This document shows positions 1-14,564 of a stretch of DNA of 24,000 nt, in pieces. The position numbers and the translations under genes are program-made. Origin of the DNA: Micrococcoides hystricis (lineage in GTDB: Bacteria; Actinomycetota; Actinomycetes; Actinomycetales; Micrococcaceae); NCBI RefSeq assembly GCF_042434215.1, contig NZ_JBHLUB010000028.1, positions 1 to 24,000 of the forward strand, read 5' to 3'. Under the pieces are notes generated by a model, which was not told where the DNA came from, made no database searches, and saw nothing but the letters and a program-made list of their open reading frames with translations. Every line of letters begins with the position of its first letter. Within the stretch, counting starts at the first letter, position 1.

Positions 1-79
1 ACCGCACACCAGCCGAAGTCGAGACCGACTACTGGCAGCAACACCAGCTGTCAGCAACAATAGAAATCAGGGTAAACGC

Positions 80-1345
80 CTAGGAAGAAAACCCGGACCA
101 TTTCAGTGCGAAGAACGCGCTATTGAGGTCTTCTTGCGTTGCCTGACCGATGCCGGCTTGTTTTTCCATATCAAGGTGCATTGCAGAACCGCCCATGATC
201 GTAAACCAAGCGAAGAAAAAGAAGCTAGGGACGAGCATGACACCCGCAACGAATTGACGAACCGTTCTTCCGCGAGAGATTTTTGCGAGGAAGATCCCGA
301 CAAATGCTGACCAGCTAAGCCACCAAGCCATCATGAAATAGGTCCACCACTGCATCCACTCCATGTCGGCGCTCGTCAATGGGGTCATGAGGGAGATCAT
401 CAAGAAATCAGAGGAGTATTGTCCCACTGAACGAACAAATAGGTTGGAAATGAATCCTGTAGGACCAAGCAGGAAGATGAAGAGCCCAAACAGGGTGGCA
501 AGTGTCAGAGTGATCTGAGAGATATATCGAATGCCACGGCTAACTCCAGTTAGCGCAGAACCTGTGAATAGCAAAGTCACTACCGCAATGACCATAATCT
601 GAATCGCCAACGTAGGCTCAATGCCGATGACAGTGTTGAGACCCTGACTAATTTGAGCAGCGCCCAAACCAAGAGATGTGGTGGTGCCGAACAATGTAGC
701 CAGAATTGTCAGAATGTCGACGAGTTTTCCAGGCCATCCATCGACCGCTTTGCCAAGAACCGGACGCAACATCACAGAAACCAGTGCAGGGCGTCCTTTT
801 CTGTGCGTTGAATATCCAATTGCTAGACCAAAGATCCCGAAGACGGCCCAAGCATGCATGCCCCAGTCCAGGTACGCAAACTCCAACGCGCGAATAGCAG
901 CATCCATGGTTTCTGGTTCGGCTAAACCATGAGGTGGAGCGAGAAAATGTGACATGGGTTCAGCTACGCCGTAGCTGACTAATCCGATACCCATAACGGC
1001 AGCCAGAATCATCGCCAACCAAGAAAAAGTGCTGTATTCCGGTCGACACTCTTGGCTGCCTAATCGCAATTTACCGAACCTACTGATAGCCAACCAAGCC
1101 ATCAAGAAGACACAGAGAAGTGGGACAACCAAATAAGACCAGCCGATAGTGCCAGCCACTGCGTTCATTGCACCACCCATTGCCTCACCTATCGCGGCAG
1201 GTGATAGGGCGGTAACGACAACGAATACTATGACAAGGCCGACTGAAACAAGAAAGACAGTACTTAGCTTTCTGCTACCTGAGGATGAATCATTCTGATC
1301 GTTCCTATCAAGGAGTACTTCGGGGCCTGAACGTATTTGGGACAT
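80..1345 (-). CDS. BCCT family (betaine/carnitine/choline-type) transporter, C-terminally truncated relative to the family; possible pseudogene or fragment
   Basis: The product is multi-TM and carries the BCCT signature WWTYFMMAWWLSWSAFVGIFLAKISRGRTVRQF. Only about 55 aa follow that signature, whereas family members normally have about 150 aa (TM10-12). The ATG at 1345 has AGGAA 8 nt upstream, so I prefer it to the track's TTG at 1363. The stop is TAG at 80-82, and the frame stays open downstream to a second TAG at 29-31. Confidence 0.8.
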   Translation of the reverse strand: MSQIRSGPEVLLDRNDQNDSSSGSRKLSTVFLVSVGLVIVFVVVTALSPAAIGEAMGGAMNAVAGTIGWSYLVVPLLCVFLMAWLAISRFGKLRLGSQECRPEYSTFSWLAMILAAVMGIGLVSYGVAEPMSHFLAPPHGLAEPETMDAAIRALEFAYLDWGMHAWAVFGIFGLAIGYSTHRKGRPALVSVMLRPVLGKAVDGWPGKLVDILTILATLFGTTTSLGLGAAQISQGLNTVIGIEPTLAIQIMVIAVVTLLFTGSALTGVSRGIRYISQITLTLATLFGLFIFLLGPTGFISNLFVRSVGQYSSDFLMISLMTPLTSADMEWMQWWTYFMMAWWLSWSAFVGIFLAKISRGRTVRQFVAGVMLVPSFFFFAWFTIMGGSAMHLDMEKQAGIGQATQEDLNSAFFALKWSGFSS

Positions 1346-1468
1346 TGGATCGGTTCCTGTCAATAGGCGACCTTGAGGTTTGGTCGTGTCTTATTTCGAA
1401 CCCCAAGCATCGTCTTCTGCTAGGGATTGGTTTGGTTGGAGTCGCGAATTTTCTAATGGCGAAGCAAA

Positions 1469-2440
1469 CTAGTCAGCGAATTCCGGCAAGGGCTCCAACC
1501 GCCCGCCGTCGTAGAACTTTCCAGCCTTATAAACGATTGGAGTCTTATCTGTGGAATTCGCGTGGGTTACTTTTCCAATGAAGAGCGTGTGGGTTTTAAC
1601 TTGGACTCGCTCGACTACTTCAACCTCAAGAGCAGCGGCCGCTTGTGAAAGCAGCGGGCTACCTTTCGGGCCATGCTCCCAGTCGACGCCTTCAAACTTA
1701 TTTTTGGACTTCGATGCAAATGAGGCGAGGACATCCGACTGATCTGTTGCGAGAATATTGATTCCAATATGGTCGGACTTAAACATCGATGGGTATGTCG
1801 ATGAGGATTTCTGGACACAGACGATAACCAAGGGTGGGTCGAAAGACACAGAGGCGTAGGAGTTCACAGCAAGACCACGCGGGACATCACCATCGAGCGT
1901 CGTAACGACCGTCACGCCGGTTACGAATTGTCGATTAAAGCTACGCACGTGGTCGTAGAAACGGCTATCGTCAGATTGAGTTCCGGTGTCTTGTTGATCG
2001 AGCTCGAACGCAGCGCGGAGAGAGTTGACTCCCAAATCTGCAAGCAGTTCACCGGCATCCCAAGTTACTTTTTCTTTGACGATCATTCCGTCTTGGATGG
2101 TCATGAGATTGGTCCCAGCCGTTTCAACCCTCCGGCCAGTCGGAGGTACGTCATTGAGCGGTTTCGAGAAGGTTCCGCTGGATTTCCAGAACACTGCAAC
2201 GGAATCAGCGTCAACTAGGATCTTCTCGATAGAAGTCTTCAAATCTGGGAAGGCTTCCCGAATGATTCTGATTTCTTGTTTCAGATCCTCGTAGCTCATT
2301 TCTTGCTCTGAATTGGCGCCCTCGCGGGAGTAATCAGGTGCGACCAGCTTGTCAAAGTTGCTGAAATTGCCCTGATCCCAGGCGGCGGACCAGGCTTCTT
2401 GGATTTGGGTAACAATATTATGTTGCATGGTACAGAGCAT
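1469..2440 (-). CDS. Fusion protein: N-terminal SnoaL-like/ester-cyclase (NTF2-fold) domain plus C-terminal flavin reductase (HpaC/RutF-type FMN-binding split barrel)
   Basis: The N-terminal half matches the ester-cyclase pattern (AFPDLKTSIEKILVDADSVAVFWKSSGTF...VPPTGRRVETAGTNLMTIQDGMIVKEKVTWD). The C-terminal half matches flavin reductases (FVTGVTVVTTLDG..PRGLAVNSYASVSFDPPLVIVCV...THTLFIGKV). The start could instead be the internal ATG at 2428 (MQHN...). Confidence 0.8.
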   Translation of the reverse strand: MLCTMQHNIVTQIQEAWSAAWDQGNFSNFDKLVAPDYSREGANSEQEMSYEDLKQEIRIIREAFPDLKTSIEKILVDADSVAVFWKSSGTFSKPLNDVPPTGRRVETAGTNLMTIQDGMIVKEKVTWDAGELLADLGVNSLRAAFELDQQDTGTQSDDSRFYDHVRSFNRQFVTGVTVVTTLDGDVPRGLAVNSYASVSFDPPLVIVCVQKSSSTYPSMFKSDHIGINILATDQSDVLASFASKSKNKFEGVDWEHGPKGSPLLSQAAAALEVEVVERVQVKTHTLFIGKVTHANSTDKTPIVYKAGKFYDGGRLEPLPEFAD

Positions 2441-2508
2441 AGATTTGTGACTGACATCTCGTCAAGGGGGCCACTCGTGAGCCGCTTTAGGTCATTTTTG
2501 TGAGTTGC

Positions 2509-2537
2509 TTGACACAACCTTGTATGGAACATAGCCT
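2509..2537 (+). promoter_or_regulatory. Candidate sigma-A-type promoter of the GntR gene (TTGACA-N17-TAGCCT)
   Basis: TTGACA lies at 2509-2514, followed by a 17-nt spacer and TAGCCT at 2532-2537. The ATG at 2545 is 7 nt after the -10 element, which implies a leaderless or near-leaderless mRNA. An imperfect inverted repeat ACAA-N2-TTGT (2514-2523) sits in the spacer. Confidence 0.35.
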
Positions 2538-2544
2538 CATAGTC

Positions 2545-3249
2545 ATGTCAGCGATTCCCCCAAGCCAAGACACTCGAGCCGAGTCGTTAGCAAACGCTCC
2601 GCTCATCGAGCGAGTCCGTCATTTCGTGCTTTACGGAGGCCACCCAGTGGAAGCTTCGTTATCTGAGTTGGCCCTCTCGCAGAGATTTAGTGTCAGCAGG
2701 ACTCCGATCCGCGAGGTGCTCAAACAACTTGAGAATGAAGGATTGGTGGAGGTTCGTCCGAAAGTTGGAACTTTCATTAAGGTTCCAACACGGAGTGAGA
2801 TAGTTGATCTATTCCAGTTGAAAGAATCGATGGAAGGTCTGGGCGCGTCACTCATGGCGCGTTCTCCGAGTAAATCCGCGCTAGACACGCTGAAGCGGAA
2901 TGTCGATGCCTCACGACGCATTGTGTCCACGAATGAAGCATCCGTGTACGCGAATCTAGTTCATGAATTCCACTGGACGATCATTCTGGACTCAGGAAAT
3001 TCAAAACTCGTTGACCATTATTCTCGCTTGATGAATCAACTGGCTTATCAGTCAATAGTCGTGGAAACCGTGAGTAACCCTGGGCGGCTTTCGACCTCGA
3101 TTAATGAACATCAAAGCGTCTTGGAAGCAATCGAAGCCAAAGATTCGATCGAAGCTGAGCTTGCAATGAGGAATCATGTCCACGCATCGAGCAATGCTGC
3201 CCTGATGATGCCGGGGCTAGTGGAGCGAATGCGTAGAAACGGGTCTTAG
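2545..3249 (+). CDS. GntR family transcriptional regulator (FadR/FCD subfamily)
   Basis: There is a winged-HTH motif LSELALSQRFSVSRTPIREVLKQLENEGLVEVRPKVGTFI, followed by an all-helical FCD-like C-terminal domain. The track start at 2500 (GTG) would overlap the predicted -35 element. ATG 2524 and ATG 2545 are alternative starts. Confidence 0.85.
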   Translation: MSAIPPSQDTRAESLANAPLIERVRHFVLYGGHPVEASLSELALSQRFSVSRTPIREVLKQLENEGLVEVRPKVGTFIKVPTRSEIVDLFQLKESMEGLGASLMARSPSKSALDTLKRNVDASRRIVSTNEASVYANLVHEFHWTIILDSGNSKLVDHYSRLMNQLAYQSIVVETVSNPGRLSTSINEHQSVLEAIEAKDSIEAELAMRNHVHASSNAALMMPGLVERMRRNGS

Positions 3250-3284
3250 CTCTCAGGCTGGAAGTTTATTCTGAAAGGATTTGT

Positions 3285-3959
3285 ATGTCTGATGACCCCC
3301 TGCGCCCAAAAACGAATCTCTACGACAGCGATACACGCTACAACTACGAGAGAATCGCTCACCAAATTGGCGTAAGAAAAATAGTCACAATTGTCGATGA
3401 AACTTTTATCGAGGGAAAAACTGGTCTTCACACACCGGTGAAACAGGCGGCCGTCTCCATTGTGCTGAAGAACCCATGGGTAGGTGGAACTTCTGCTCAA
3501 GACCTTCAACCTGAGACGGAGAGAATCGCGCCCATAATCGCCAAGATCGCGGTGGATCGATTAATCGCACACCTAGGTTCGGTTCAGGAAATCGAAGCGT
3601 TCGGTAAAGCGGCAATTGTTGGGCTAGACGGGGAGATAGAGCATGCCGGCGCTCTCATCCATACTCCGTTTTTCGGCAACATCGTTCGAGAACTTCTAGA
3701 AGGTTCCTCAATCATGTGTTTTTCAGACCAGAGGTCCGCCCCGGGTACTCAAATTCGTATTCCGATGTGGCACAAGTCAGCAGCGGCAACTCGCAGCTAC
3801 TACCAGTCCATGTCGGTTGAAATAGCCGATTCACCCCAAAGAGATGAACTCGTGATCATCGTGGCTAGCTCTAACGGGCCACGACCGAATCACAGAATTG
3901 GTGATCGAACTACCGATCAACCCGTAACAAAAGAGCTACTGAAAGGAATTGAACTGTGA
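3285..3959 (+). CDS. 'Amino acid synthesis' family protein (PF06684/DUF1185-like), paralog 1, with an N-terminal extension of about 30 aa
   Basis: Family-typical blocks are present: RKIVTIVDE..IEG, NPWVGG, FGKAAIVGLDGEIEHAGALIHTPFFG, and RS..QS...AD.P..DE. AAGGA lies 5 nt upstream of the ATG. Confidence 0.7.
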   Translation: MSDDPLRPKTNLYDSDTRYNYERIAHQIGVRKIVTIVDETFIEGKTGLHTPVKQAAVSIVLKNPWVGGTSAQDLQPETERIAPIIAKIAVDRLIAHLGSVQEIEAFGKAAIVGLDGEIEHAGALIHTPFFGNIVRELLEGSSIMCFSDQRSAPGTQIRIPMWHKSAAATRSYYQSMSVEIADSPQRDELVIIVASSNGPRPNHRIGDRTTDQPVTKELLKGIEL

Positions 3960-4507
3960 ATGTTCGCAAAATTGTGACCCACGTTGAAGATGTACTGATC
4001 GAAGGCGGACGCCAGGTTGACCCAGTGACAAGAGTTGCTTTCGTTGGAGCGGTAATCCCGAACCCGTGGGCGGGTCAAGGATTCGTAGAAGACTTGTCGC
4101 ACGGGATTGACTCGGTTGCCTCAGATCTAGGTGCGTTGTTAGCCTCTCGTGTTATCGAAGCCCTCGAAACCGAATTGGAGGCTTACGGGAAGGCTGCCAT
4201 CGTAGGGCTGAATGGAGAAATTGAGCATGGTTCCGCTCTTATTCACACGTTGAAATTTGGTGATCACTTCCGTCAGGCTGCCAAGGCCACAACCTTGCTT
4301 CCAGCCGTCGAGAAACGGTCCGCTGCCGGACGCCCATTCGATGTCCCACTGAAGCATTTCACAGATGCAACTATTCGTTCCCACCACCAGAGTATCGAAC
4401 TGTGTTTCGCGGACATTCCGCATCCTGATGAAATCCTGATCGGATTAGCTGCAGCATCTCACGGACGCCCTCAACAACGGCTAGCGCCTTTGTCGACTGA
4501 GCAGTGA
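3956..4507 (+). CDS. 'Amino acid synthesis' family protein (PF06684/DUF1185-like), paralog 2
   Basis: It has the same blocks as paralog 1: RKIVTHVEDVLIEG, NPWAGQG, YGKAAIVGLNGEIEHGSALIHTLKFG and RSHHQSIEL.FADIPHPDE. The GTG start overlaps the upstream TGA (GTGA), consistent with translational coupling. Confidence 0.7.
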   Translation: MNVRKIVTHVEDVLIEGGRQVDPVTRVAFVGAVIPNPWAGQGFVEDLSHGIDSVASDLGALLASRVIEALETELEAYGKAAIVGLNGEIEHGSALIHTLKFGDHFRQAAKATTLLPAVEKRSAAGRPFDVPLKHFTDATIRSHHQSIELCFADIPHPDEILIGLAAASHGRPQQRLAPLSTEQ

Positions 4508-4516
4508 CCTGAAGCC

Positions 4517-5287
4517 ATGGTCTCAACGAATCCAGAGGTGGTGCCTCAAGCTAACGAGGGTAAACCTCTCGTTTTCTTGCACGGAGTTGGACTCGACCGA
4601 TCTATGTGGCGGGAGGTGGAGCTCGGTATTAAGAATCCGACCCTGAGCTTGGACTTACCCGGTCATGGAAACCAACCTCCTTTGACGCTAAGTTCTTCAC
4701 TCGAAGAGTTGGCTAAAGATGTCAAAGCGAGGATTCCCTACGACAACTATTATCTGGTTGGTTTTTCTCTGGGTGCATTAGTTGCTCAACAAATCGCAAG
4801 TAGTTCTGACAATGGGGTATGCGGACTGGTCTCTGTTAGTTCAGTCTGTAACCGAACAGAGTCGGAGAAGACTGCGGTGCGTGAGCGCTTGGCAACTGCA
4901 GAACGAGACTTCGAAAGCAGTATTGAGGCTTCGATTGACAGGTGGTATCCCCAAGGAAGTTCCGTAGCTCCGTCCATCGTCGAAGCAACACGAGAAACTC
5001 TGAGACGCAATAACGTTGAATCGTTTCTCCATGCTTACCGAGTTTTTGCAACTGGAGATGCTGAAGTATTCAATCAGCTTTCCCAGATCAAGGTTCCTGT
5101 CCTTGCCGTGACAGGGGAACAAGATCCAGGTTCCTCGCCTGCTATGACACATAGGCTTGTCGCTGCGTTGCCGAATGCAGAAGCGGTAATTGTGCCGAAT
5201 GCAAGGCATATGTTCCCAGTAACGCACCCTAACGTTCTTATCGAATTAGTTGAATCCTTTATTTCTAAGGTGGAGAGCACACCATGA
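4517..5287 (+). CDS. Alpha/beta-fold hydrolase (PcaD/RutD/XylF-like)
   Basis: The oxyanion region is LVFLHGVGLDRSMW, the nucleophile elbow is GFSLG, and the C-terminal sequence NARHMFPVTHP carries the catalytic His. Confidence 0.85.
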   Translation: MVSTNPEVVPQANEGKPLVFLHGVGLDRSMWREVELGIKNPTLSLDLPGHGNQPPLTLSSSLEELAKDVKARIPYDNYYLVGFSLGALVAQQIASSSDNGVCGLVSVSSVCNRTESEKTAVRERLATAERDFESSIEASIDRWYPQGSSVAPSIVEATRETLRRNNVESFLHAYRVFATGDAEVFNQLSQIKVPVLAVTGEQDPGSSPAMTHRLVAALPNAEAVIVPNARHMFPVTHPNVLIELVESFISKVESTP

Positions 5288-6765
5288 CACTTCGTCTTGA
5301 TCACTACATCAATGGCAAATACGAACGACCCGCTGCAGAGGAGTATTTCGAAAGCTACAACCCTGCAACTTTGGAATTGCTTTACGAGGCCGCACGCGGC
5401 GACAAAGATGACGTTGAGAAAGCAGTAGACGCAGCAAGCATGGCCTTCAAATCGGCGTCTTGGAAAAATCTTTCAGCAACTCAACGGGGACACTTGCTAC
5501 GACGTCTCGGTGACTTGGTAGTTCAACATGCCGACGAACTGGCCATGTTGGAAAGTCAGGACAACGGCAAATTGCTCAGAGAAATGAAAGGGCAGCTACA
5601 GACGCTTCCAGAGTATCTTTACTATTACGCGGGACTAGCTGACAAAGTACAGGGAGCGGTAGTCCCCAGCTCGAACATCGCCATAGTGAACTTTACGGAA
5701 CGGGAGCCACTAGGCGTAGTAGGGGCGATCACCCCCTGGAACTCACCTCTGACCTTGACTGTTTCCAAGCTTGCTCCCGCATTGGCTGCAGGCAACACAT
5801 TGGTCATCAAACCAAGCGAATATACCTCGCGGACAGTGCTTCGCTTGGCGGAATTGGCAACAGAAGCGGGTTTCCCTCAGGGCGTCATTAACGTAGTCAC
5901 GGGTTATGGAGCTGAGGCTGGTGCAGCCTTAGTGGAATCAAGAGAACTAGCAAAAATCTCCTTTACCGGTTCCACTCAGACAGGGTCACGTATTGCCTCT
6001 CAAACCGCCGCGCGCTTCGTAGGAAGCACCCTCGAACTCGGCGGGAAGAGCCCCAATATCGTATTTGAGGATGCAAATATTCATAACGCATCTATGGGAG
6101 TTGTCGCGGGCATATTCGCTGCAGCAGGACAAACTTGCATCGCTGGTAGCCGTGTCTTTGCTCACCGATCTGTGTATGAAGAACTGGTGGACAAGGTAAG
6201 CGAGCGCGCCCAGACAATTAAGATTGGGAATCCTCTCGAAGAGACAACTGAACTTGGACCACTTGCCTTCCAAGACCAGCTTGAAAAAGTTGAATCATAT
6301 GTGAATATCGGCCGTGAGGAAGGTGCGACCGTGGTAACCGGTGGTACCAGACCGGATACTGAATTGCCTGGCTATTTCTTCAGCCCGACTGTGCTGACTG
6401 ATGTCAACAACGACATGAAAGTTGTGCGTGAAGAGATCTTCGGGCCAGTTGCGGCAATCATGCCTTTTGATACAGAGGAAGAAGTACTCGCACTCGCTAA
6501 TGACACAGAGTATGGCCTGGCGGCGGGAGTTTGGACGCAGAATCTTGCCAGAGCTCACCGGATGGCGAAGAAGCTGGAAGCAGGGACCATTTGGGTAAAT
6601 ACCTATAGAGCAATGTCGCCCATGTCTCCACGGCAGGGATTTAAGTCTTCCGGCGTTGGTATCGAACATGGCATCGAGTCTATGTATGAGTACACCCGGC
6701 TTAAGAGCATCTGGATTAATACCGATGAAGATGCGGTGGCCGATCCGTTTGTAATGCGTAGCTAA
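5284..6765 (+). CDS. NAD(P)+-dependent aldehyde dehydrogenase
   Basis: Both ALDH signatures are present: ELGGKSPNIVF (catalytic Glu) and GQTCIAGSR (catalytic Cys). The 493 aa length is typical. The start overlaps the upstream stop by 4 nt (ATGA), and GGAGAG lies upstream. Confidence 0.92.
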   Translation: MTLRLDHYINGKYERPAAEEYFESYNPATLELLYEAARGDKDDVEKAVDAASMAFKSASWKNLSATQRGHLLRRLGDLVVQHADELAMLESQDNGKLLREMKGQLQTLPEYLYYYAGLADKVQGAVVPSSNIAIVNFTEREPLGVVGAITPWNSPLTLTVSKLAPALAAGNTLVIKPSEYTSRTVLRLAELATEAGFPQGVINVVTGYGAEAGAALVESRELAKISFTGSTQTGSRIASQTAARFVGSTLELGGKSPNIVFEDANIHNASMGVVAGIFAAAGQTCIAGSRVFAHRSVYEELVDKVSERAQTIKIGNPLEETTELGPLAFQDQLEKVESYVNIGREEGATVVTGGTRPDTELPGYFFSPTVLTDVNNDMKVVREEIFGPVAAIMPFDTEEEVLALANDTEYGLAAGVWTQNLARAHRMAKKLEAGTIWVNTYRAMSPMSPRQGFKSSGVGIEHGIESMYEYTRLKSIWINTDEDAVADPFVMRS

Positions 6766-6779
6766 GAAAGAAATAACTC

Positions 6780-6980
6780 ATGCCACTTTTTGATATCTCA
6801 ATCGCCAAGGGCCGTACCCGAGAAGAGCTAAGAAACCTCATCAGCGCTGTCCACCGAGCAGCGGAAGAGACGGTAAATGCTACGCCGGAAAATACCACCG
6901 TCATCATTCGTGAAGTTGAGCCTGAAAACTGGTCTAAAGCCAATCAGACTATTGCAGAACGTAACCAGGCAAAGAGTTAA
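6780..6980 (+). CDS. 4-oxalocrotonate tautomerase family enzyme
   Basis: The 66-aa product begins MP (Pro1 after Met removal). The pattern MPLFDISIAKGRTREELRNLISAVHRAAEETV...VIIREV matches the 4-OT beta-alpha-beta layout. Confidence 0.75.
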   Translation: MPLFDISIAKGRTREELRNLISAVHRAAEETVNATPENTTVIIREVEPENWSKANQTIAERNQAKS

Positions 6981-6989
6981 GGAGTAGTC

Positions 6990-8036
6990 ATGGATTTCTC
7001 ACTATTTATACACATGGAACGGTGGGATGATGAAATCACTCACCAACAAGCTTGGGAGAACTTAGTCGAACTCACCCTCATGGCTGAAGCTGGGGGATTT
7101 CGAACCGTTTGGATTGGTGAGCACCACTCAATGGAGTACACAATTTCTCCCAATCCGATGAGTCAGTTGGCCTATTTGGCGGGGAAAACTGAAAAAATTC
7201 GGCTTGGTGCTGGAACCATTATCGCTCCGTTCTGGAATCCTCTACGTGCAGCGGGAGAAGGTCCACTATTAGACGTCATTTCTGGTGGACGAGCGGAGAT
7301 GGGAGTCGCACGAGGTGCCTACCAGTTTGAGTTTGACCGGATGGCGGATGGTCTGCCTGCCACAGATGGCGGACAGCATTTGAGGGAACTCGTGCCGGCC
7401 ATGAAGAAGCTGTGGGAAGGCGACTATGCTCACGAGGGGAAGATCTGGAAATTCCCAGTTTCTACGAGTGTGCCGAAGCCAGTTCAAACACCTGGACCAC
7501 CTGTATGGGTGGCTGCACGTGACATCAATTCTCATGAATTTGCTGTTGAGAATGGTTGCAATGTAATGGTGACACCGTTGATGAAAGATGACGACGAAGT
7601 CGTCGATCTATTGAGTAAGTTCAATTCGGCGGTTGACAAGTTTAAACCTGCTGACAAACCAAAAATCATGGTGCTGCGCCACACTTTCGTCCATGATGAA
7701 AATGCCCCTGACCATTGGAAGGTTGGAGCTGCTGGTGTCAACAAGTTCTATCGCACTTTTGACGCATGGTTCGGAAACAAGACCGATCCAGTCAACGGAT
7801 TCCTAGAACCGAGCCCGGAATCAAAATTCGCTGACAGGCCGGAATTTTCGCTCGACTCGTTGCGCCGGAGTGCCATGATTGGAACTCCAAGCGAAGTCAT
7901 CGAACGAGTGCGACAGTACAAGGAATGGGGAGTCGATGAATATAGCTTCTGGTGCGACAACAGCCTGTCTCATGAGGAAAAGAAGCAGTCACTAAAGCTG
8001 TTTATCGATGAGGTCGTCCCTGCCATCAACAAATAG
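6990..8036 (+). CDS. LLM-class (luciferase-like) flavin-dependent monooxygenase/oxidoreductase
   Basis: At 348 aa it has the N-terminal pattern typical of bacterial luciferase-like monooxygenases (FSLF....E......AEAGGF..VWIGEHH). AAGGAG lies 6 nt upstream of the ATG. Confidence 0.85.
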   Translation: MDFSLFIHMERWDDEITHQQAWENLVELTLMAEAGGFRTVWIGEHHSMEYTISPNPMSQLAYLAGKTEKIRLGAGTIIAPFWNPLRAAGEGPLLDVISGGRAEMGVARGAYQFEFDRMADGLPATDGGQHLRELVPAMKKLWEGDYAHEGKIWKFPVSTSVPKPVQTPGPPVWVAARDINSHEFAVENGCNVMVTPLMKDDDEVVDLLSKFNSAVDKFKPADKPKIMVLRHTFVHDENAPDHWKVGAAGVNKFYRTFDAWFGNKTDPVNGFLEPSPESKFADRPEFSLDSLRRSAMIGTPSEVIERVRQYKEWGVDEYSFWCDNSLSHEEKKQSLKLFIDEVVPAINK

Positions 8037-8140: not shown

Positions 8141-8746
8141 TTATTTGGAACTAATCCCTCTGCGGTAAGAACCCACGATGTGGGTGTCTACCATCCCAAT
8201 TGCTTCCATCATGGCGAAAATCAGGGTCGGTCCCACGAAGGTGAAACCGCGCTTCTTTAGCTCCTTGGCCAAAGCGATGGACTCCGCTGACTGGCTAGGC
8301 ACTTCGGCGGCCGTGCGCGGTGCGAATTCCTGCTCGGGCCGGTAACTCCAGATCAACTCAGCCAGACCCGCATTGTCTCTAAGCTTGATGGTCGCAGCTG
8401 CGTTCTGCACCACCGCATTAATCTTGCGCCGGTTCCGAATCATGGTTGGATCCGCCAAGAGAGCTTCTATTTCATCTTCATCCATGCCGACGACCTTGTC
8501 CGGCACGAAGTTGTGAAACGCGGTCCGAAGTCTGTCCCGCCGACGCAAAACCGTCAGCCACGACAGGCCAGCTTGAAATCCTTCAAGACTGAGTCGTTCA
8601 AACAACCCTTGTTCGTCCCTGACGGGCACGCCCCATTCCTGATCGTAGTAATCCAGCAGGAGCGGGTCCGCAAGAGCCCAAGCCGAGCGGAGTTTCCCAT
8701 CCGGTCCTGGCTGCAAGTCTGGGGGGTTCGAAGCTCGAGTTTCCAT
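8141..8746 (-). CDS. tag: DNA-3-methyladenine glycosylase I
   Basis: DPLLLDYYDQEWGVP, LSLEGFQAGLSW.TVL.RR, IRNRRKI and KKRGFTFVGPT align with E. coli Tag as I recall it. The start is uncertain: ATG 8746 is chosen, and the track gives TTG at 8779. Confidence 0.85.
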   Translation of the reverse strand: METRASNPPDLQPGPDGKLRSAWALADPLLLDYYDQEWGVPVRDEQGLFERLSLEGFQAGLSWLTVLRRRDRLRTAFHNFVPDKVVGMDEDEIEALLADPTMIRNRRKINAVVQNAAATIKLRDNAGLAELIWSYRPEQEFAPRTAAEVPSQSAESIALAKELKKRGFTFVGPTLIFAMMEAIGMVDTHIVGSYRRGISSK

Positions 8747-8872
8747 GTGTCGATCATAGAGACGTTCGGACACCTGCAAAATAGCCGAGGTAAGCGGCAG
8801 GCTGATCTGGGGTGCAACGGTTGCCTGTGGAGGAAGTGGCTCGGGCAGCTTCAGTGTCTTAGTGTGGAAGCC

Positions 8873-9460
8873 ATGGGATCTAAGTCACAACGTGAACGCA
8901 TGGAAGCTGGCGAGCTGTACAACGCCAACGATCCCGAGTTGCACCGCCTGACGGAGAATGCTCGGCTGATCTGTGGCGAATTCAACGAACACTACGCAGA
9001 GAACAGTATGGCCGCCCAAACCATTGTTGGCGAGCTCTTGGGTGGTTTTGGTGCCGACTCACATATCCGCGCCCCACTGTGTGTGGACTACGGTATCAAC
9101 ATCTTTGTGGGGGAGCGGACCTTCATCAACTTCAACTTGACCGCTTTGGATGTTGCCCGGATAGAGATTGGAAATGACTGCCAAATCGGGCCCAACGTCC
9201 AGTTGCTGACACCAACCCACCCGCTGGACCCGCAGCTGCGTTTGCAGAAGTTGGAGGCCGGCGAACCGATTGTGCTGGAAGACAATGTGTGGCTTGGCGG
9301 TGGGGTGATCGTCTGCCCAGGAGTGCGGATCGGTGAAAACTCGGTGATCGGCGCCGGTGCGGTGGTCCTGCATGACGTCCCACCAAACTCAGTGGCGGTC
9401 GGCAACCCGGCACGGGTGATCAAACGAACCGATGGGACCGTGCCGGAAGAGCTGGACTAG
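8873..9460 (+). CDS. maa: Maltose/galactoside-type sugar O-acetyltransferase (hexapeptide-repeat, Mac N-terminal domain)
   Basis: ERMEAGELYNANDPEL......CGEFN is a Mac domain. It is followed by left-handed beta-helix hexapeptide repeats (IGNDCQIGPNV, VWLGGGVIVCPGVRIGENSVIGAGAVV) and ends NPARVIK. The ATG at 8873 is preceded by GGAAG. The track's 8513 start is an antisense-to-tag extension. Confidence 0.85.
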   Translation: MGSKSQRERMEAGELYNANDPELHRLTENARLICGEFNEHYAENSMAAQTIVGELLGGFGADSHIRAPLCVDYGINIFVGERTFINFNLTALDVARIEIGNDCQIGPNVQLLTPTHPLDPQLRLQKLEAGEPIVLEDNVWLGGGVIVCPGVRIGENSVIGAGAVVLHDVPPNSVAVGNPARVIKRTDGTVPEELD

Positions 9461-9466
9461 AACCGC

Positions 9467-9763
9467 TTACAGGTAGAGGCCGGTGACGATGTCAGCGGAG
9501 TCAGGTTCCGCGACGGCGTGGATGTCTCGTTCGCGCAGCAGAATGTAGCTTTGAGCGGAAATTTCGACTTCGTGACGGTCTTCGGGGTCGAAAAGAACCT
9601 TGTCGCCGTTGCTGACCTGTCGAACGTTCGGGCCGGTCGCGACCACATCTGCCCATGCAAGCCGCTTGCCCATCTGCGCGGTGGCGGGGATGACAATGCC
9701 GGAGGCGGAACGGCGTTCAGCGGCCTCATCATCGAGCTTGACCAAGATACGGTCATGCAGCAT
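9467..9763 (-). CDS. GroES/Cpn10-fold small protein (non-canonical GroES paralog) with a C-terminal tail
   Basis: MLHDRILVKLDD.....SASGIVIP....GK...A.VVATGP......GDKVLF......EV......YILLRERDIHAV follows the Cpn10 pattern. It lacks the roof-hairpin segment and adds a tail, EPDSADIVTGLYL. The upstream 50 codons of the track ORF are unlikely to be coding. Confidence 0.7.
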   Translation of the reverse strand: MLHDRILVKLDDEAAERRSASGIVIPATAQMGKRLAWADVVATGPNVRQVSNGDKVLFDPEDRHEVEISAQSYILLRERDIHAVAEPDSADIVTGLYL

Positions 9764-9875
9764 TTTCACCGGTAATGACTGTTCAATCTCATCCACGAGA
9801 ACTAAGTGTAGCTGGCATGAAGACGGTAAGCTGGATATCAGGAACCTGAACCCGAAAGCGGAGAACATCTTCCTC

Positions 9876-10688
9876 ATGGCAAAAAACCCAGTTTTTAACT
9901 CTAAAAACTTCAAATCACAACTCCAAACACAGCCACCTGCAGGCTACGGCACCACTCAACAGGGCTACGGCCAGCCGATGTCACCAGAGCAATTGCAGGA
10001 CATGTACAACGCTCCGGCAGCCACTGCGGCCCAAACCGGTCGCGTTACCTACAGCGATGTCATTAACAAGACCCTGATCTCGCTGGCCCTCGTGCTGGCG
10101 GGTGCAGTGCTGGGTTGGAACGTTACCGGCCTGCTGCTGATCGGCATCGTCGCCGGCGTGGTCTTGGGTCTGGTCAACTCCTTTAAGAAGAAGCCATCCC
10201 CGCCACTGATCTTGGCCTACTCCTTCTCCCAAGGTGTGGTTCTGGGTGCCATCTCCGGCATCCTGGAGTACTACTACCCAGGTATCGCCATTCAGGCAGT
10301 GGTGGCCACGCTGTCCGTCTTCGCAGGTGTGTTGGCGCTGTTCAAGTCCGGCAAGATTCGGACCTCGCCAAAGCTGACGAAGATCTTCTACGCAGCCATG
10401 CTGGGTTACCTGCTCTTCTCCTTGGTGAACTTCGGTCTGGTGCTGTTCGGTGCCACCGATTCGATGTTCGGTTTGCGCTCTGGCTGGTTGGGTCTAGCGA
10501 TCGGTCTGTTCGCTGTGGCGCTGGCTTCCTACTCGCTTGTGATGGACTTTGAAGACATCGCCCGCGCGGTGAACACGGGTGCTCCGAAGATCGTCGCATG
10601 GATCGGCGCTTTCGGCCTGACCGTTACCTTGGTCTGGTTGTACATCGAGATCATCCGGATCATCGCCATCCTGCGTGGCAGTGACTAA
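9876..10688 (+). CDS. Bax inhibitor-1/YccA family membrane protein
   Basis: A Q/G/Y-rich N-terminus is followed by about 7 TM helices, a layout typical of actinobacterial BI-1-like proteins. The ATG at 9876 has GGAGA upstream. The track start at 9600 is antisense to the GroES-like gene. Confidence 0.75.
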   Translation: MAKNPVFNSKNFKSQLQTQPPAGYGTTQQGYGQPMSPEQLQDMYNAPAATAAQTGRVTYSDVINKTLISLALVLAGAVLGWNVTGLLLIGIVAGVVLGLVNSFKKKPSPPLILAYSFSQGVVLGAISGILEYYYPGIAIQAVVATLSVFAGVLALFKSGKIRTSPKLTKIFYAAMLGYLLFSLVNFGLVLFGATDSMFGLRSGWLGLAIGLFAVALASYSLVMDFEDIARAVNTGAPKIVAWIGAFGLTVTLVWLYIEIIRIIAILRGSD

Positions 10689-10730
10689 CTAGATTCCCAT
10701 GATGGATTCGTAAAGTGACCTAACGGTCGG

Positions 10731-10767
10731 AGAGGGCAGGGGAGACTCTGCCCTCTTCTTATTTTGT
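10731..10767 (+). terminator. Rho-independent terminator after the BI-1 gene
   Basis: AGAGGGCAG (10731-10739), an 8-nt loop and CTGCCCTCT (10748-10756) are followed by TCTTATTTTGT. Confidence 0.7.
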
Positions 10768-10788
10768 AGCGGAAAGTGATACAGAAAC

Positions 10789-11961
10789 GTGCGAAATCTT
10801 TTCTCACCGGGAGCCCGTCAACCCAACCCGGACCGGCGTCCGCTGGCGCAGCGAACCGATGACCAAGCCTTCAAAGAGGTTCCTTACGGTCTACGCGTCG
10901 CCTCCGAATGGGGTCTTCGGTTCATCATCGTTGTGGTGGCTACAGGTGTGCTGCTGTGGCTCATGAGCTTCCTGACGCTGCTGATCATTCCGCTGATGGC
11001 AGCCGCGTTGCTGGCCACGCTGCTCTCCCCGCTACATCACCGGATGCGTTCGTGGGGCGTGCCCAATGGGTTGTCCGTCCTGATCACTATTTTGGCCTTC
11101 CTCGGGTTCCTAGCCGGCTCCATTGCCATGGTGGGCCAGCAGCTGGTGACTGGTTTCGCTGAGATGTGGGGGCAGGTCGTCGACGGCTGGAACAAGATCA
11201 TGATCTGGTTGGCCGATGGCCCATTGCATGTCTCATCTGCCCAGATCGAAAACGCTATTAGCGACTTTTTCGAAGTCATCCAATCCAACTCCAACACCAT
11301 CATTTCCGGTGCCATGAGCTTTGGCTCCACCGCCGGAAACTTTGCCGCCGGAAGCATCTTGGCGCTTTTCGCACTGGTGTTCTTCCTCCTGGACGGCAAG
11401 GGCATCTGGCGGTTCCTGCTGAACTTCACGCCCCGCCGCGACCGACAAGCCATTGAGGGCGCTGGCTACGCGGGATGGGATTCGCTGGGCTCATACGTGC
11501 GCGTGCAGGTCTTCGTGGCTGCCGTGGACGCCGTGGGTATCGGTTTGGGTGCGCTGTTGCTTGGCGTTCCGTTTGCCTTGCCGCTGGGCGTGTTGGTCTT
11601 CCTAGGTTCCTTCATTCCGATCGTCGGTGCAGTGCTGACCGGCGCGATCGCAGTACTGCTGGCACTGATCGCCAACGGATGGCTCAATGCCTTGATCATG
11701 CTGGGTGTCGTCTTGCTTGTGCAGCAGGTTGAATCCAACATTCTGCAGCCACTGGTCATGGGTAAAGCCGTCCAATTGCACCCACTGGCAGTTGTGCTGG
11801 CCGTGACCGGCGGAACCACGCTAGCCGGTATCGTCGGTGCGGTCTTCGCAGTGCCACTGCTGGCCTTGGTCAATCGGATGGTCCAGTACTTAGCCAAACG
11901 GGAATGGATCTCTGATCCCCGAATACAACCGGCGACACAGATCCCGTCCGTCAGACCCTAA
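10789..11961 (+). CDS. AI-2E family transporter (PerM/YhhT, UPF0118)
   Basis: The 390-aa polytopic membrane protein carries the family C-terminal block NALIMLGVVLLVQQVESNILQPLVMGK. The GTG start is tentative. Confidence 0.8.
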   Translation: MRNLFSPGARQPNPDRRPLAQRTDDQAFKEVPYGLRVASEWGLRFIIVVVATGVLLWLMSFLTLLIIPLMAAALLATLLSPLHHRMRSWGVPNGLSVLITILAFLGFLAGSIAMVGQQLVTGFAEMWGQVVDGWNKIMIWLADGPLHVSSAQIENAISDFFEVIQSNSNTIISGAMSFGSTAGNFAAGSILALFALVFFLLDGKGIWRFLLNFTPRRDRQAIEGAGYAGWDSLGSYVRVQVFVAAVDAVGIGLGALLLGVPFALPLGVLVFLGSFIPIVGAVLTGAIAVLLALIANGWLNALIMLGVVLLVQQVESNILQPLVMGKAVQLHPLAVVLAVTGGTTLAGIVGAVFAVPLLALVNRMVQYLAKREWISDPRIQPATQIPSVRP

Positions 11962-12075
11962 CTGGCGAGGCCTTTTTCAGGCGCATGGTCGCTGGTGCCG
12001 GAGTAACGGCGGCGCATCGAGAACGGAAGCGACGTAAACTAGATCAAGACCCCACGTAGAAGGCTGACCACATCG

Positions 12076-13347
12076 ATGAGTACCGACCAAACCATGTCCA
12101 CAACCGCCCTGACCTCTAAGGTGACCCTGGCTGATATTGAATCCGCGGCCAAACTCTTAGACGGCGTGATTGTGAAGACCCCGGTCGATCACTCGCGGGC
12201 ACTCGGTCGCCTAACCGGTTCCTCGGTGTATCTGAAATGCGAGAACCTGCAGCGTGCCGGGTCCTTCAAGGTGCGCGGCGCTTACGTTCGGATGGCGCGC
12301 CTCTCGGATGAAGAGAAGGCCTGCGGTGTGGTCGCCGCATCTGCTGGCAACCACGCCCAAGGCGTTGCCCTTGCCGCCTCCAAACTCGGTATTAAGGCCC
12401 GCATCTACATGCCATTGGGCGTCGCGTTGCCGAAGCTGGCCGCCACCAAAGACCACGGTGCGGAAGTTGTGCTCCACGGCGAAAACGTGGATGAGGCGTT
12501 GGCCGAAGCGCAACGCTATGCAGAAGAATCTGGCGCGATCTTCATTCACCCCTTCGACAACCCCGATGTGATCGCCGGTCAAGGCACGATTGGGCTCGAA
12601 ATTCTTGAGCAACTTCCTGAAGTCGACACCATCGTCATGGGTGTCGGGGGCGGCGGATTGCTGTCCGGTGTTGCCACCGCGGTCAAGGCCAGAGCCAAAC
12701 AAATGGGCCGGGACATCAAGGTCATCGGTGTGCAGGCAGAAAACGCCGCAGCATACCCGCCCTCGCTCGCCGCAGATGCCGTGGTGCCGCTGGATCGAGT
12801 CTCCACCATCGCGGACGGCATTGCCGTGGGAAAACCAGGGGCATTGCCCTTCAAGATCATCCGAGAGCTGGTTGATGAAGTCGTCACGGTTTCTGAAGAC
12901 GGCCTAGCCCAAGCCCTGATCTTCTTGCTCGAACGCTCCAAAATGGTCGTCGAGCCCGCCGGTGCCTCCGGCGTGGCCGCCTTGTTGGAGAACAAACTCA
13001 AAGAAATCGGTATCGAGTCCAAGAACACCGTCGTGGTGCTCTCCGGCGGTAACATCGACCCGATGCTGATGCTCAAAGTCATTCAGCGTGGTCTCTCCGC
13101 CGCCAGTAGGTTCCTCACCGTGAAGATCATGCTGCATGACCGCGCCGGTGAGCTGGCGACCATCTCCCGTATCATCGCCGAAGCCGACGCGAACGTCACC
13201 GGTGTGGATCACACCCGCATTGGCGGTTCGCTGTCCATGGGGGACGTGTCCATCACGATCGACATGGAGACTAAGGGCGAAGAGCATTCCGAAGAAGTAC
13301 TCAACGCGCTGCGCTCCGCCGGTTATCAGCCGATTACGGTCAACTAG
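12076..13347 (+). CDS. ilvA: Threonine ammonia-lyase (threonine dehydratase), short form with one ACT-like regulatory domain
   Basis: The PLP-lysine motif is ENLQRAGSFKVRGA. SAGNHAQGVA and the glycine-rich loop GVGGGGL are present, and the C-terminal part of the 423 aa is ACT-like. Confidence 0.92.
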   Translation: MSTDQTMSTTALTSKVTLADIESAAKLLDGVIVKTPVDHSRALGRLTGSSVYLKCENLQRAGSFKVRGAYVRMARLSDEEKACGVVAASAGNHAQGVALAASKLGIKARIYMPLGVALPKLAATKDHGAEVVLHGENVDEALAEAQRYAEESGAIFIHPFDNPDVIAGQGTIGLEILEQLPEVDTIVMGVGGGGLLSGVATAVKARAKQMGRDIKVIGVQAENAAAYPPSLAADAVVPLDRVSTIADGIAVGKPGALPFKIIRELVDEVVTVSEDGLAQALIFLLERSKMVVEPAGASGVAALLENKLKEIGIESKNTVVVLSGGNIDPMLMLKVIQRGLSAASRFLTVKIMLHDRAGELATISRIIAEADANVTGVDHTRIGGSLSMGDVSITIDMETKGEEHSEEVLNALRSAGYQPITVN

Positions 13348-13349
13348 CC

Positions 13350-13805
13350 ATGAAACTCAGTGCCTTCGCCGACGTTTGCCTCAGAGTCATGATGTTCACG
13401 GGCGCTGAGAACCGGGAGTCGGGCGCTCAGGCACTGACCACCACGCAAGAGCTGGCCGATGCTATCCAAGTCCCTTACAACCACGTGGCCAAAGCGGTGC
13501 TGCAGTTGCGCAAACTCGGGGTGCTGGAAGTAACTCGCGGACGCAGCGGGGGAACACGGATCTCCCCGGACGGGATGGACACCTCGGTGGGTGCGATCCT
13601 GAGACAACTGGACACTCGGGAGGACGTGGTCGACTGCGAGACCACGAATCACACCTGCCCGCTGGCTTCACGCTGCCGGTTACGCCGGGCCCTGCGGGAC
13701 GCGCGGGAAGCGTTCTATGCGACGCTCGATCCGCTGACCGTGGCAGACCTTGTCGATGAGAGCCGCACATTCGTGCCGATGCCCACCATCCCCGAACAGA
13801 AATAG
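13350..13805 (+). CDS. Rrf2 family transcriptional regulator (NsrR/IscR-like, three-Cys cluster motif)
   Basis: MKLSAFADVCLRVMMF is followed by the HTH ELADAIQVPYNHVAKAVLQLRKLGVLEVTRGRSGG, then C-x6-C-x5-C (CETTNHTCPLASRC). It starts 2 nt after the ilvA stop. Confidence 0.85.
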   Translation: MKLSAFADVCLRVMMFTGAENRESGAQALTTTQELADAIQVPYNHVAKAVLQLRKLGVLEVTRGRSGGTRISPDGMDTSVGAILRQLDTREDVVDCETTNHTCPLASRCRLRRALRDAREAFYATLDPLTVADLVDESRTFVPMPTIPEQK

Positions 13806-13841
13806 GGCCCAGTCTACACAGGGCTTTTCGCGCATAAAAAA

Positions 13842-13879
13842 GGTCTTCGTCGGTTTCTTCTGTGAAACCAACGAAGACC
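13842..13879. terminator. Bidirectional intrinsic terminator between the Rrf2 gene and greA
   Basis: GGTCTTCGTCGGTTTC (13842-13857), a ttctgt loop and GAAACCAACGAAGACC (13864-13879) form a 16-bp stem with one mismatch. It is flanked by an A-run upstream and TTTTCT downstream. Confidence 0.8.
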
Positions 13880-13898
13880 TTTTCTAGACGGGGAAGTC

Positions 13899-14393: not shown

Positions 14394-14403
14394 GTGTACT
14401 CCT

Positions 14404-14461: not shown

Positions 14462-14564
14462 AATGCCTTATTCGAACAATGCTACGGGTTTGATGATTCG
14501 CTTCACAAGTAAGCAGGGCTTGCTGAGTCGAACATGACTCGAAAAAAGCTCCGGAAAGGCCGTC

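Follow-up and report, generated by a model that had tools for sequence, protein, structure and literature searches.

Does the group of catabolic genes at the left end of the window (the whole stretch of Micrococcoides hystricis DNA analyzed here, 24,000 nucleotides) encode an undescribed pathway, as proposed by an earlier sequence-only reading, or a version of a known one? The island consists of nine genes between positions 80 and 8036, each of which is confirmed by Pfam and NCBIfam where that reading placed it. The features are as follows.

80–1363, minus strand: BCCT-family transporter, probably disrupted (Pfam BCCT, E 9.6e-134)
1469–2440, minus strand: SnoaL-like + NAD(P)H:flavin reductase fusion (Pfam SnoaL, 1.3e-25; Flavin_Reduct, 3.2e-39)
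2441–2544, no strand: divergent intergenic/control region with a candidate GntR operator, TTGTATGGAA, at 2520–2529 (inference only)
2500–3249, plus strand: GntR/FCD transcriptional regulator, TgnR-like (Pfam GntR, 1.6e-13; FCD, 1.6e-19)
3285–3959, plus strand: DUF1185/AA_synth protein 1, TgnF-like paralogue, the less conserved copy (Pfam PF06684, 4.1e-56)
3956–4507, plus strand: DUF1185/AA_synth protein 2, TgnF-like paralogue, the highly conserved copy (Pfam PF06684, 4.8e-56)
4517–5287, plus strand: alpha/beta-fold hydrolase, TgnD-like (Pfam Abhydrolase_6/_1)
5284–6765, plus strand: NAD(P)-dependent aldehyde dehydrogenase (ALDH), TgnC-like (Pfam Aldedh, 2e-171)
6780–6980, plus strand: 4-oxalocrotonate-tautomerase (4-OT) family protein, 66 aa (NCBIfam 4-OT models, 1e-12, below cut-offs)
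6990–8036, plus strand: luciferase-like (LLM) flavin-dependent monooxygenase, TgnB homologue of a separate clade (Pfam Bac_luciferase, 1.8e-56)

The right end of the island is at 8036, and all genes from 8141 to 24000 are housekeeping genes. The G+C content is about 50% in positions 1–8000 vs 55–60% over the remainder of the window. A survey of gene neighborhoods, suggested as a check in the sequence-only reading, shows that 58 actinobacterial genomes, belonging to several orders, keep the whole set in the same order, so that the arrangement is not due to chance.

Trigonelline (N-methylnicotinate) is an osmolyte of plants and algae, and a cluster for its catabolism, tgn, was reportedly described in Acinetobacter baylyi ADP1 by Perchat et al. 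2018. The comparison was made with the NCBI-named orthologous cluster of A. baumannii (L002), which stands for that of ADP1. The LLM protein of the island aligns over its full length (346 aa) at 49% identity (E 9e-136) with P0121, the Acinetobacter LLM protein that NCBI names the oxygenase component of trigonelline monooxygenase. The ALDH shows 45% identity to the ALDH in the TgnC position vs 37% to the succinate-semialdehyde dehydrogenase (SSADH) of that cluster; the DUF1185 proteins show about 40% (42% for copy 1 against the single Acinetobacter protein), the reductase domain 37% over 145 aa, and the hydrolase 28% over 248 aa; a GntR regulator is present as well. The generic NCBIfam best hits of the window proteins match those of the Acinetobacter Tgn proteins (e.g., the same PcaD-like profile for both hydrolases), and the search of solved structures and other named families found nothing nearer than Tgn (the nearest solved structure for the LLM protein gives E 8e-27). 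Furthermore, hydrolase orthologues with 50–56% identity are named “(E)-2-((N-methylformamido)methylene)succinate hydrolase” (TgnD) by JGI, and some of the actinobacterial and Pseudomonas putida-group proteins that are 69–74% identical to the LLM protein are called TgnB; these names were assigned by homology rather than by experiment. TgnB contains an LLM domain (PMC11354265).

Given that most Tgn families, with the exception of the SSADH TgnE, have a homologue here and that JGI already names orthologues of TgnB and TgnD, the cluster does not count as an undescribed pathway; it is a variant of a system already known. The sequence-only reading had named high-identity orthology of the whole set to a characterized pathway as what would overturn it; the genes are indeed homologous to those of a known pathway but, because the identities are moderate (28–49%), not high, it is overturned only in part. 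Its other elements hold up better: the island is a two-component LLM monooxygenase catabolic cluster, and the analogy with Tgn, with trigonelline already among the suggested substrates, was apt. The exception is the placement of DUF1185 outside the pathways considered, given that TgnF is a DUF1185 protein (PMC7913881) and the Acinetobacter cluster carries one. By these comparisons, the cluster appears to be an actinobacterial variant of the characterized trigonelline pathway with a few extra conserved parts, and the region is probably a horizontally acquired, actinobacterial-type version of tgn.

That reading also invoked the Rut (pyrimidine) and Pyr (pyridine) routes of ring or C-N opening, with which the island has in common the general logic of an LLM oxygenase, a flavin reductase, an alpha/beta hydrolase (RutA, RutF and RutD in Rut) and a dehydrogenase. 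Weak HMM matches to RutF and RutD are detected but, at 66 bits vs a cut-off of 254.75 and 36 bits vs 238.5, respectively, these are far under the equivalog cut-offs; the RutA model is not among the best 25 of the 28 LLM hits, and homologues of RutB, RutC, RutE and RutG are absent from the cluster. Rut membership is therefore rejected and, with TgnB by far the closest named relative of the LLM protein, a route of either kind is highly improbable.

Compared to tgn, which has the same arrangement in Acinetobacter, Pantoea (L090) and Falsirhodobacter (L091), the island shares the two-component LLM oxygenase and flavin reductase, the ALDH, an alpha/beta hydrolase directly after a DUF1185 gene, the GntR regulator, a secondary transporter for a zwitterionic heterocycle and, in relatives, a nearby SSADH gene. 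The gene order differs, P-A / R-F1-F2-D-C-4OT-B in the window vs R / F-D-A-B-C-P in tgn, and so does the transporter, BCCT vs NCS1 (in Acinetobacter and Pantoea) or ABC. The island has two DUF1185 genes instead of one and adds a SnoaL domain and 4-OT, whereas its reductase lacks the C-terminal extension of about 150 aa found in canonical TgnA. Against the assignment to tgn stand the identity of only 28% between the hydrolase and TgnD, the different reductase architecture, the three components (SnoaL, 4-OT, second DUF1185) without a counterpart in the characterized pathway, the lack of an SSADH gene in the window, and the apparent inactivation of the BCCT gene.

In the fusion protein, the SnoaL-like (NTF2-fold) domain occupies aa ~12–137 and the flavin reductase aa ~170–311. 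The latter is predicted to be the TgnA-like partner of the LLM protein; the Acinetobacter 310-aa reductase is named by NCBI as a trigonelline monooxygenase component. SnoaL, which is N-terminal here, is unrelated to the C-terminal extension of TgnA (hhalign probability 0.1). The two domains are adjacent in 56 of the 58 actinobacterial loci and fused in frame in 21; in Gordonia, they are encoded by two separate adjoining genes. The start of DUF1185 copy 2 overlaps the stop of copy 1, and each copy is about 37% identical to orthologues of the other, with conservation across the actinobacterial loci of 47–57% for copy 1 and 70–79% for copy 2 (nearest structures 2qtp, E 8e-37, and 3byq). The ALDH is conserved at 66–78% identity, and the hydrolase retains a G-F-S-L-G nucleophile motif. 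In 46 of the 58 loci, a 4-OT gene is detected between those for the ALDH and the LLM protein, and the Pseudomonas and canonical tgn clusters compared have none; the 4-OT protein of the window has Pro1 and Arg11, with Arg39 replaced.

The cluster is a distinct lineage with a separate LLM clade, two DUF1185 genes, an added SnoaL and, usually, 4-OT. Identity within each of the two LLM clades is at least 66% and between them 45–57%. Because the LLM protein of the window sits in a discrete clade, a shift of substrate is possible: Tgn-type enzymology could act on a different N-heterocycle, with another pyridinium betaine or a pyridine carboxylate (e.g., homarine, N-methylnicotinamide, N-methylisonicotinate, an unmethylated pyridine acid) as candidates. 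SnoaL, 4-OT and the second DUF1185 protein would then handle intermediates that trigonelline does not give rise to. The conservation of these three components across Actinobacteria speaks for this explanation, as does the presence of two LLM matches on single Mesorhizobium and Rhizobium plasmids. The uncharacterized cluster on the pAt plasmid of Agrobacterium fabrum (L008) also shares the reductase, ALDH, LLM, hydrolase, DUF1185 and a betaine-type transporter; however, its LLM protein is only 42% identical to that of the window (40–45% to both clades), it has additional genes for CMD, NIPSNAP and a glyoxylate-reductase-like protein, and its transporter is the ABC-type ProXVW. This third tgn-like lineage implies that the family has diversified.

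Another point in favor comes from homarine, an N-methylpyridinium carboxylate isomeric with trigonelline: its breakdown, encoded by the operon homABCDER (PMC13236597, 2026), passes through intermediates of N-formyl, aldehyde and acid type, in parallel with the Tgn chemistry. However, the published operon order is E-A-B-transporter-C-D-R, different from that of the island, and 96% of the carriers are Alpha- or Gammaproteobacteria. The P. putida-group clusters (uncharacterized; e.g., L037 from P. putida GM4FR) carry LLM proteins of the same clade as the window (70–76% identity) linked to flavin reductase, DUF1185, hydrolase, ALDH and GntR genes and an NCS1-like permease, but contain a single DUF1185 gene, no SnoaL, no 4-OT, and a short reductase with a second reductase gene; hence LLM proteins of this clade can do without the extra components. 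The ALDH, DUF1185 and GntR proteins of these clusters are equally close to canonical tgn (54–57%, 37–40%) and to the actinobacterial proteins. Besides, the taxonomic ranges of the two LLM clades are complementary, and the lack of a common genus among the best 120 hits of each agrees with one form having taken the place of the other, and less with two paralogues that serve separate functions. A different substrate is accordingly unlikely, and the most likely one is trigonelline, although a related pyridinium betaine may be used; in either case the cluster most likely acts on a betaine-like N-heterocycle, as the sequence-only reading had it. None of the papers searched describes an actinobacterium that carries this cluster and uses trigonelline, which counts against the assignment to tgn. 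The LLM gene of Metapseudomonas otitidis stands alone, beside genes for LysR and an MFS carrier.

By analogy with the A. baylyi pathway, a betaine-type carrier (BCCT here, apparently broken; BCCT or NCS1 in relatives) would import the pyridinium betaine, and the reductase domain of the fusion would use NAD(P)H to supply reduced flavin to the LLM protein, the proposed ring-cleaving oxygenase. The latter would open the unhydroxylated pyridinium ring to yield an N-formyl enamine aldehyde or lactol, which the ALDH would convert to a diacid. The hydrolase would then strip the formyl group, with collapse of the enamine to succinate semialdehyde, methylamine, formate and CO2. The 4-OT protein and the SnoaL domain might accelerate tautomerization or decarboxylation, and the DUF1185 pair could be TgnF-like helper proteins. 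An SSADH counterpart is absent from the whole 24 kb inspected; in related Micrococcaceae, this gene adjoins the BCCT gene, and here it is expected just past the left edge of the window.

Transporters of the BCCT (betaine carrier) family, 51–63% identical to that of the window, are encoded at the equivalent position in 34–36 of the 58 actinobacterial loci, and NCS1 takes this place in others. The BCCT gene reported by the sequence-only reading is present but looks disrupted. The ORF, which is oriented toward the left edge of the window, matches only positions 1–384 of the 485 in the Pfam profile and ends with an in-frame TAG at 80–82, equivalent to residue ~496 of the intact 608-aa orthologue (L029). 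The alignment with that orthologue ends at the TAG, the frames beyond are degenerate, and the remaining 79 nt contain a clean continuation in no frame, so that the C-terminal ~100 residues are probably missing or degenerate. The island could, then, be a decaying remnant in which the enzymes may be intact and the pathway out of use because the transporter dedicated to it has become a pseudogene. Its G+C content, about 8 points below that of the flanks, is consistent with foreign DNA, and in relatives the cluster is found on a plasmid beside a recombinase or next to an ISL3 transposase. However, none of the eight other ORFs is truncated and their catalytic motifs are intact, the stop may stem from a sequencing error, the left flank of the gene is outside the window, and another carrier could import the substrate. 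Decay is a possibility, if a rather doubtful one, and bears on activity in one strain, not on the identity of the cluster; it is compatible with either trigonelline or a different substrate.

As for expression of the tgn-like cluster, orthologues of the regulator (44–62% identity, 226–233 aa) are encoded in all 58 actinobacterial loci, and its true start is probably the ATG at 2545, not the GTG at 2500. The GntR/FCD repressor, first in its operon, would probably control both divergent transcription units. A promoter scan yields one weak sigma-70-like site, 2465–2436 on the minus strand, no more than expected by chance. Of 16 Micrococcales relatives, 14 have the motif TTGTATGCAA (half-palindrome TTG-N4-CAA) in the corresponding region, and 10 of these 14 have a second copy, with one mismatch, 20–21 bp away. 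The window contains a single match with one mismatch, the only one in 24 kb, and positions 2520–2529 are a candidate GntR operator.

The cluster at the left end of the window (80-8036) comprises nine genes, and the ORF list together with Pfam and NCBIfam scans places every one of them where the sequence-only reading had put it.

Genes of the cluster (position, strand, product; assignments by Pfam and NCBIfam)
80-1363, minus, BCCT transporter
1469-2440, minus, fusion of a SnoaL and a Flavin_Reduct domain
2500-3249, plus, GntR/FCD regulator
3285-3959, plus, first PF06684 (AA_synth/DUF1185) gene
3956-4507, plus, second PF06684 (AA_synth/DUF1185) gene
4517-5287, plus, alpha/beta hydrolase
5284-6765, plus, aldehyde dehydrogenase (ALDH)
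6780-6980, plus, 4-OT-family protein of 66 aa
6990-8036, plus, luciferase-like flavin monooxygenase (LLM)

The plus-strand genes overlap or are separated by 9-35 bp, so that the stretch from GntR through the LLM looks like a single operon, and the BCCT and reductase genes form a divergent unit. The 4-OT protein retains Pro1 and Arg11. The right border of the cluster lies at 8036, and the genes from 8141 on are housekeeping ones, encoding Tag glycosylase, an acetyltransferase, a BaxI-like protein, an AI-2E transporter, Rrf2, a PIG-L deacetylase, DUF255, UPP synthase, PhoH, monomeric IDH and a PLP/ACT-domain enzyme, likely a threonine dehydratase. The G+C content is about 50% over positions 1-8000, compared to 55-60% in the remainder of the window, which suggests that the cluster is an acquired island. 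Among the relatives, an Arthrobacter copy (L001) resides on a plasmid next to a recombinase gene, and a Gordonia copy (L006) adjoins an ISL3 transposase. Within the housekeeping flank, the mechanically called 315-aa ORF of the hexapeptide acetyltransferase (8513-9460, plus strand) overlaps the Tag glycosylase gene (8141-8779, minus strand); because its Mac and Hexapep domains begin at residue 129, translation probably begins near 8890.

On sequence comparison, the cluster belongs to the known tgn (trigonelline catabolic) type of pyridinium-ring cleavage cluster, of which it represents an actinobacterial variant. The information on Tgn proteins comes from papers citing the original description and from the Acinetobacter orthologues named by NCBI; according to these papers, TgnA/B open the ring directly (PMC8269262), TgnB carries a luciferase-like domain (PMC11354265), and TgnF, a DUF1185 protein, stimulates the succinate-semialdehyde dehydrogenase (SSADH) TgnE (PMC7913881). 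The A. baumannii cluster (L002) is used as a stand-in for the characterized one because NCBI names relatives of its LLM, and flavin reductases as long as its own, as components of trigonelline monooxygenase: the LLM is 93-94% identical to proteins named [quoted passage not shown], and the name “reductase component” is given to 310-aa Acinetobacter flavin reductases, the same length as the L002 reductase. The gene order in L002 is GntR (minus strand), DUF1185, alpha/beta hydrolase, 310-aa flavin reductase, LLM, ALDH and NCS1 permease, with SSADH and a CMD protein encoded downstream, past an insertion; the F-D-A-B-C-permease order is found also in Pantoea and Falsirhodobacter.

The LLM of the window aligns with Acinetobacter TgnB over its full length (49% identity, 346 aa, 2 gap positions, E 9e-136) and, on this comparison, is a TgnB homologue that belongs to a separate clade, members of which bear the product name TgnB in JGI. 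The window ALDH shows 45% identity to the Acinetobacter ALDH that adjoins TgnB vs 37% to the SSADH of the same cluster, a level typical of ALDH subfamilies, and this difference is supportive of its being the TgnC counterpart. The hydrolase is only 28% identical to the Acinetobacter tgn hydrolase over 248 aa, which is weak if taken alone; the two are alike in their position after a DUF1185 gene and in their NCBIfam hit profile, and orthologues of the window protein are named MFMS hydrolase (TgnD) in JGI. The two PF06684 proteins are 39-42% identical to the single Acinetobacter DUF1185 copy, and the Flavin_Reduct domain shows 37% identity to Acinetobacter TgnA over 145 aa, the domain architectures of the two reductases being different. 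No second ALDH that could serve as the SSADH is found anywhere in the 24-kb window; given that an SSADH gene adjoins the BCCT transporter gene in 16 related loci, among them the Micrococcaceae nearest to M. hystricis, it may lie just to the left. No other named family close to the cluster proteins appears in NCBIfam or among solved structures, and PDB sequence searches with the LLM, SnoaL, DUF1185 and hydrolase proteins return generic relatives only.

These results agree in part with the sequence-only reading, which had taken the cluster for a candidate undescribed LLM-monooxygenase pathway for a betaine-like or N-heterocyclic substrate. The likeness to Tgn stands. The claim of novelty does not: identities of 28-49% and the JGI names TgnB and TgnD make the cluster a homologue of the characterized tgn pathway, and these product names, presumed to be KO-derived, already attach the tgn label to this cluster type, the NCBI labels on the genes being generic only. 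Its statement that DUF1185 proteins are foreign to Tgn is wrong because TgnF is one (PMC7913881) and the L002 tgn cluster encodes one. The likeness that it drew to the Rut pyrimidine pathway does not extend to membership, which is rejected on HMM cut-offs: the RutF match reaches 66.2 bits (cut-off 254.75) and the RutD match 36.2 bits (cut-off 238.5), and the RutA model is absent among the 25 LLM hits listed of 28.

An overlap of about 30 bp between the DUF1185 (TgnF) and hydrolase (TgnD) genes is seen in the canonical tgn clusters (L002, 6622-8035; L090 from Pantoea, 5654-7073; L091 from Falsirhodobacter, 6135-7503). This is a hint that DUF1185 is coupled to the hydrolase, even though it is SSADH that TgnF reportedly assists. 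The 90%-identity protein cluster that contains the Acinetobacter TgnB reference (P0121) mixes 345-aa TgnB and 310-aa TgnA sequences from Acinetobacter, presumably a clustering artefact of fused or overlapping gene calls.

A scan for relatives of the LLM, with one genome per species, yields 80 loci with 69-74% identity, 61 of which are actinobacterial; the 58 of these with enough flanking sequence were counted, all window proteins being used as queries against the LLM-bearing loci. The cluster lineage is widespread and tightly conserved, spanning Micrococcales, Mycobacteriales, Nocardioides, Streptomyces, Geodermatophilus, Kineococcus and others, and the gene grouping, the survey of which the sequence-only reading had proposed, recurs across the 58 loci.

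Occurrence of the cluster genes among the 58 actinobacterial loci
GntR and LLM, 58/58
Both DUF1185 genes, hydrolase and ALDH, 56-57/58 (the rest being fragmented MAG contigs)
SnoaL beside the reductase, 56/58
SnoaL in frame with the reductase (fused), 21/58, mostly Micrococcales
4-OT gene between ALDH and LLM, 46/58
BCCT transporter, 34-36/58
NCS1 transporter, 25/58
Both BCCT and NCS1 transporters, 5/58

Where it is not fused, SnoaL is encoded by a separate gene, as indicated by the Gordonia gene calls. Some of the actinobacterial clusters also have riboflavin-related genes attached (e.g., L001, 1881-2830; L006, 3737-4354; and several other loci): riboflavin kinase and NUDIX genes in Micrococcaceae, and a DHBP synthase gene in Gordonia, Rhodococcus and Geodermatophilus. 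Such genes may ensure that flavin is available.

Plants, algae and animals contain trigonelline and its isomers as abundant osmolytes, the breakdown of which has, to our knowledge, been worked out in Proteobacteria only. The cluster described here would extend pyridinium-betaine breakdown to major soil and gut-associated groups of Gram-positive bacteria, and it constitutes a natural experiment for learning how the poorly understood accessories (DUF1185, SnoaL and 4-OT) contribute to direct cleavage of the pyridinium ring. The practical gain is better annotation than the current generic labels provide.

When the best 120 relatives of the window LLM are compared with the best 120 relatives of Acinetobacter TgnB, the two sets are discrete, with at least 66% identity within each and 45-57% between them, and have no genera in common. 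Compared to canonical tgn, the actinobacterial type encodes two DUF1185 paralogues, one of them highly conserved (70-79%) and the other to a lesser degree (47-57%), whereas Acinetobacter has one; a SnoaL protein or domain is added, and a 4-OT tautomerase is usually present. Unlike canonical TgnA, the actinobacterial reductase lacks the C-terminal extension of about 150 aa, and in the window protein SnoaL is N-terminal; the SnoaL domain and the TgnA extension are unrelated (hhalign probability 0.1). The separate LLM clade and the genes beyond the canonical set are compatible with the possibility that the substrate is a related compound, such as homarine, N-methylnicotinamide or another pyridine acid. 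The stronger version of this interpretation, a distinct pathway for another pyridinium or pyridine substrate in which SnoaL, 4-OT and a DUF1185 hetero-oligomer all perform true catalytic steps, appears rather unlikely to us; if true, it would provide the first defined enzymatic role for DUF1185. Homarine breakdown itself has recently been assigned to the hom operon, the chemistry of which is analogous (PMC13236597). It is unlikely that the present cluster is that operon: the order reported there, homE-A-B-(transporter)-C-D-R, differs, and 96% of the hom carriers are Alpha- or Gammaproteobacteria, this being a comparison by order and taxonomy; SPO3188 is listed there simply as a hypothetical protein (PMC13236597).

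The extra genes are not required by the LLM clade, as seen from its members in Pseudomonas and Metapseudomonas, which sit in simpler clusters or alone. In 19 loci of the Pseudomonas putida group (L037, L043, L050 and 16 others), the LLM belongs to the actinobacterial clade (70-76% identity), but the cluster is a simpler mosaic, consisting of a short reductase, one DUF1185 protein, hydrolase, ALDH, a second flavin reductase, GntR and an NCS1-like permease. The non-LLM proteins are about equidistant from the canonical and actinobacterial types. The LLM of Metapseudomonas otitidis (L004/L062) stands as an orphan, next to genes for LysR, an MFS carrier and a chemoreceptor. A tblastn search of plasmid records with the window LLM detects 323 further records below 60% identity (42-51% among those listed), mainly from rhizobia, roseobacters, Burkholderia and Acinetobacter. 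A third tgn-like lineage is represented by the pAt plasmid of Agrobacterium fabrum (L008, 6466-17319), where an LLM 42% identical to that of the window is accompanied by reductase, ALDH, hydrolase, CMD, NIPSNAP, DUF1185 and a glyoxylate-reductase-like gene, with proXVW adjoining. Two LLM matches occur on single plasmids of Mesorhizobium ciceri and Rhizobium leguminosarum, which suggests that lineages coexist. Given these double matches and the Agrobacterium lineage, the LLM cluster family has diversified. The tgn copy on pSymA of S. meliloti AK57 (L003, 6569-8072) appears partly degraded, with the DUF1185 gene split into two ORFs, the hydrolase reduced to a fragment, and IS66 and IS21 transposases upstream.

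Homology, conservation and context of the cluster are observed directly, and the following steps are proposed by analogy with Acinetobacter. Trigonelline is the most likely substrate, a prediction in which we have reasonable though limited confidence. A BCCT or NCS1 carrier would take up the pyridinium betaine, and the reductase would supply reduced flavin to the LLM for ring cleavage. The ALDH would then oxidize the aldehyde or lactol product, and the hydrolase would deformylate it, the product collapsing to succinate semialdehyde, methylamine, formate and CO2; the final step would fall to SSADH, probably encoded just outside the window. On the basis of family chemistry, 4-OT and SnoaL might assist enamine/imine or enol/keto tautomerization and decarboxylation, and the DUF1185 pair might form a TgnF-like hetero-oligomer. 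DUF1185 proteins form trimers or hexamers in the structures described (PMC2954203); in the JCSG paper that describes the family, SPO0826 is encoded beside branched-chain amino-acid transporters and not in a tgn cluster (PMC2954203). Literature searches on trigonelline use by Actinobacteria or Pseudomonas yielded nothing relevant, nor any experimental work on clusters of this type.

The divergent control region contains the motif TTGTATGCAA in 14 of 16 Micrococcales relatives (loci among L012-L089), 10 of which have a second copy, with one mismatch, 20-21 bp away. In the window, the motif occurs once, with one mismatch, at 2520-2529, 16 bp upstream of position 2545, where GntR likely starts, and is a candidate GntR operator; the candidate site for the GntR protein reads TTGTATGGAA. 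A scan for promoters and terminators yields no more sites than in shuffled sequence, and no perfect palindromes are found in the divergent intergenic regions.

The BCCT ORF spans only profile positions 1-384 of 485, ending at an in-frame TAG (80-82) at about 80% of the length, and intact orthologues run about 110 residues past this point. Beside the stop, there is a 4-residue deletion relative to orthologues; over the final 79 nt, up to the window edge, no frame continues the BCCT sequence cleanly, and the downstream frames look degenerate. The gene is probably inactivated in this assembly, either as a pseudogene or through an assembly error. The in-frame stop suggests possible decay of the cluster in this strain, a question separate from that of what the cluster is.
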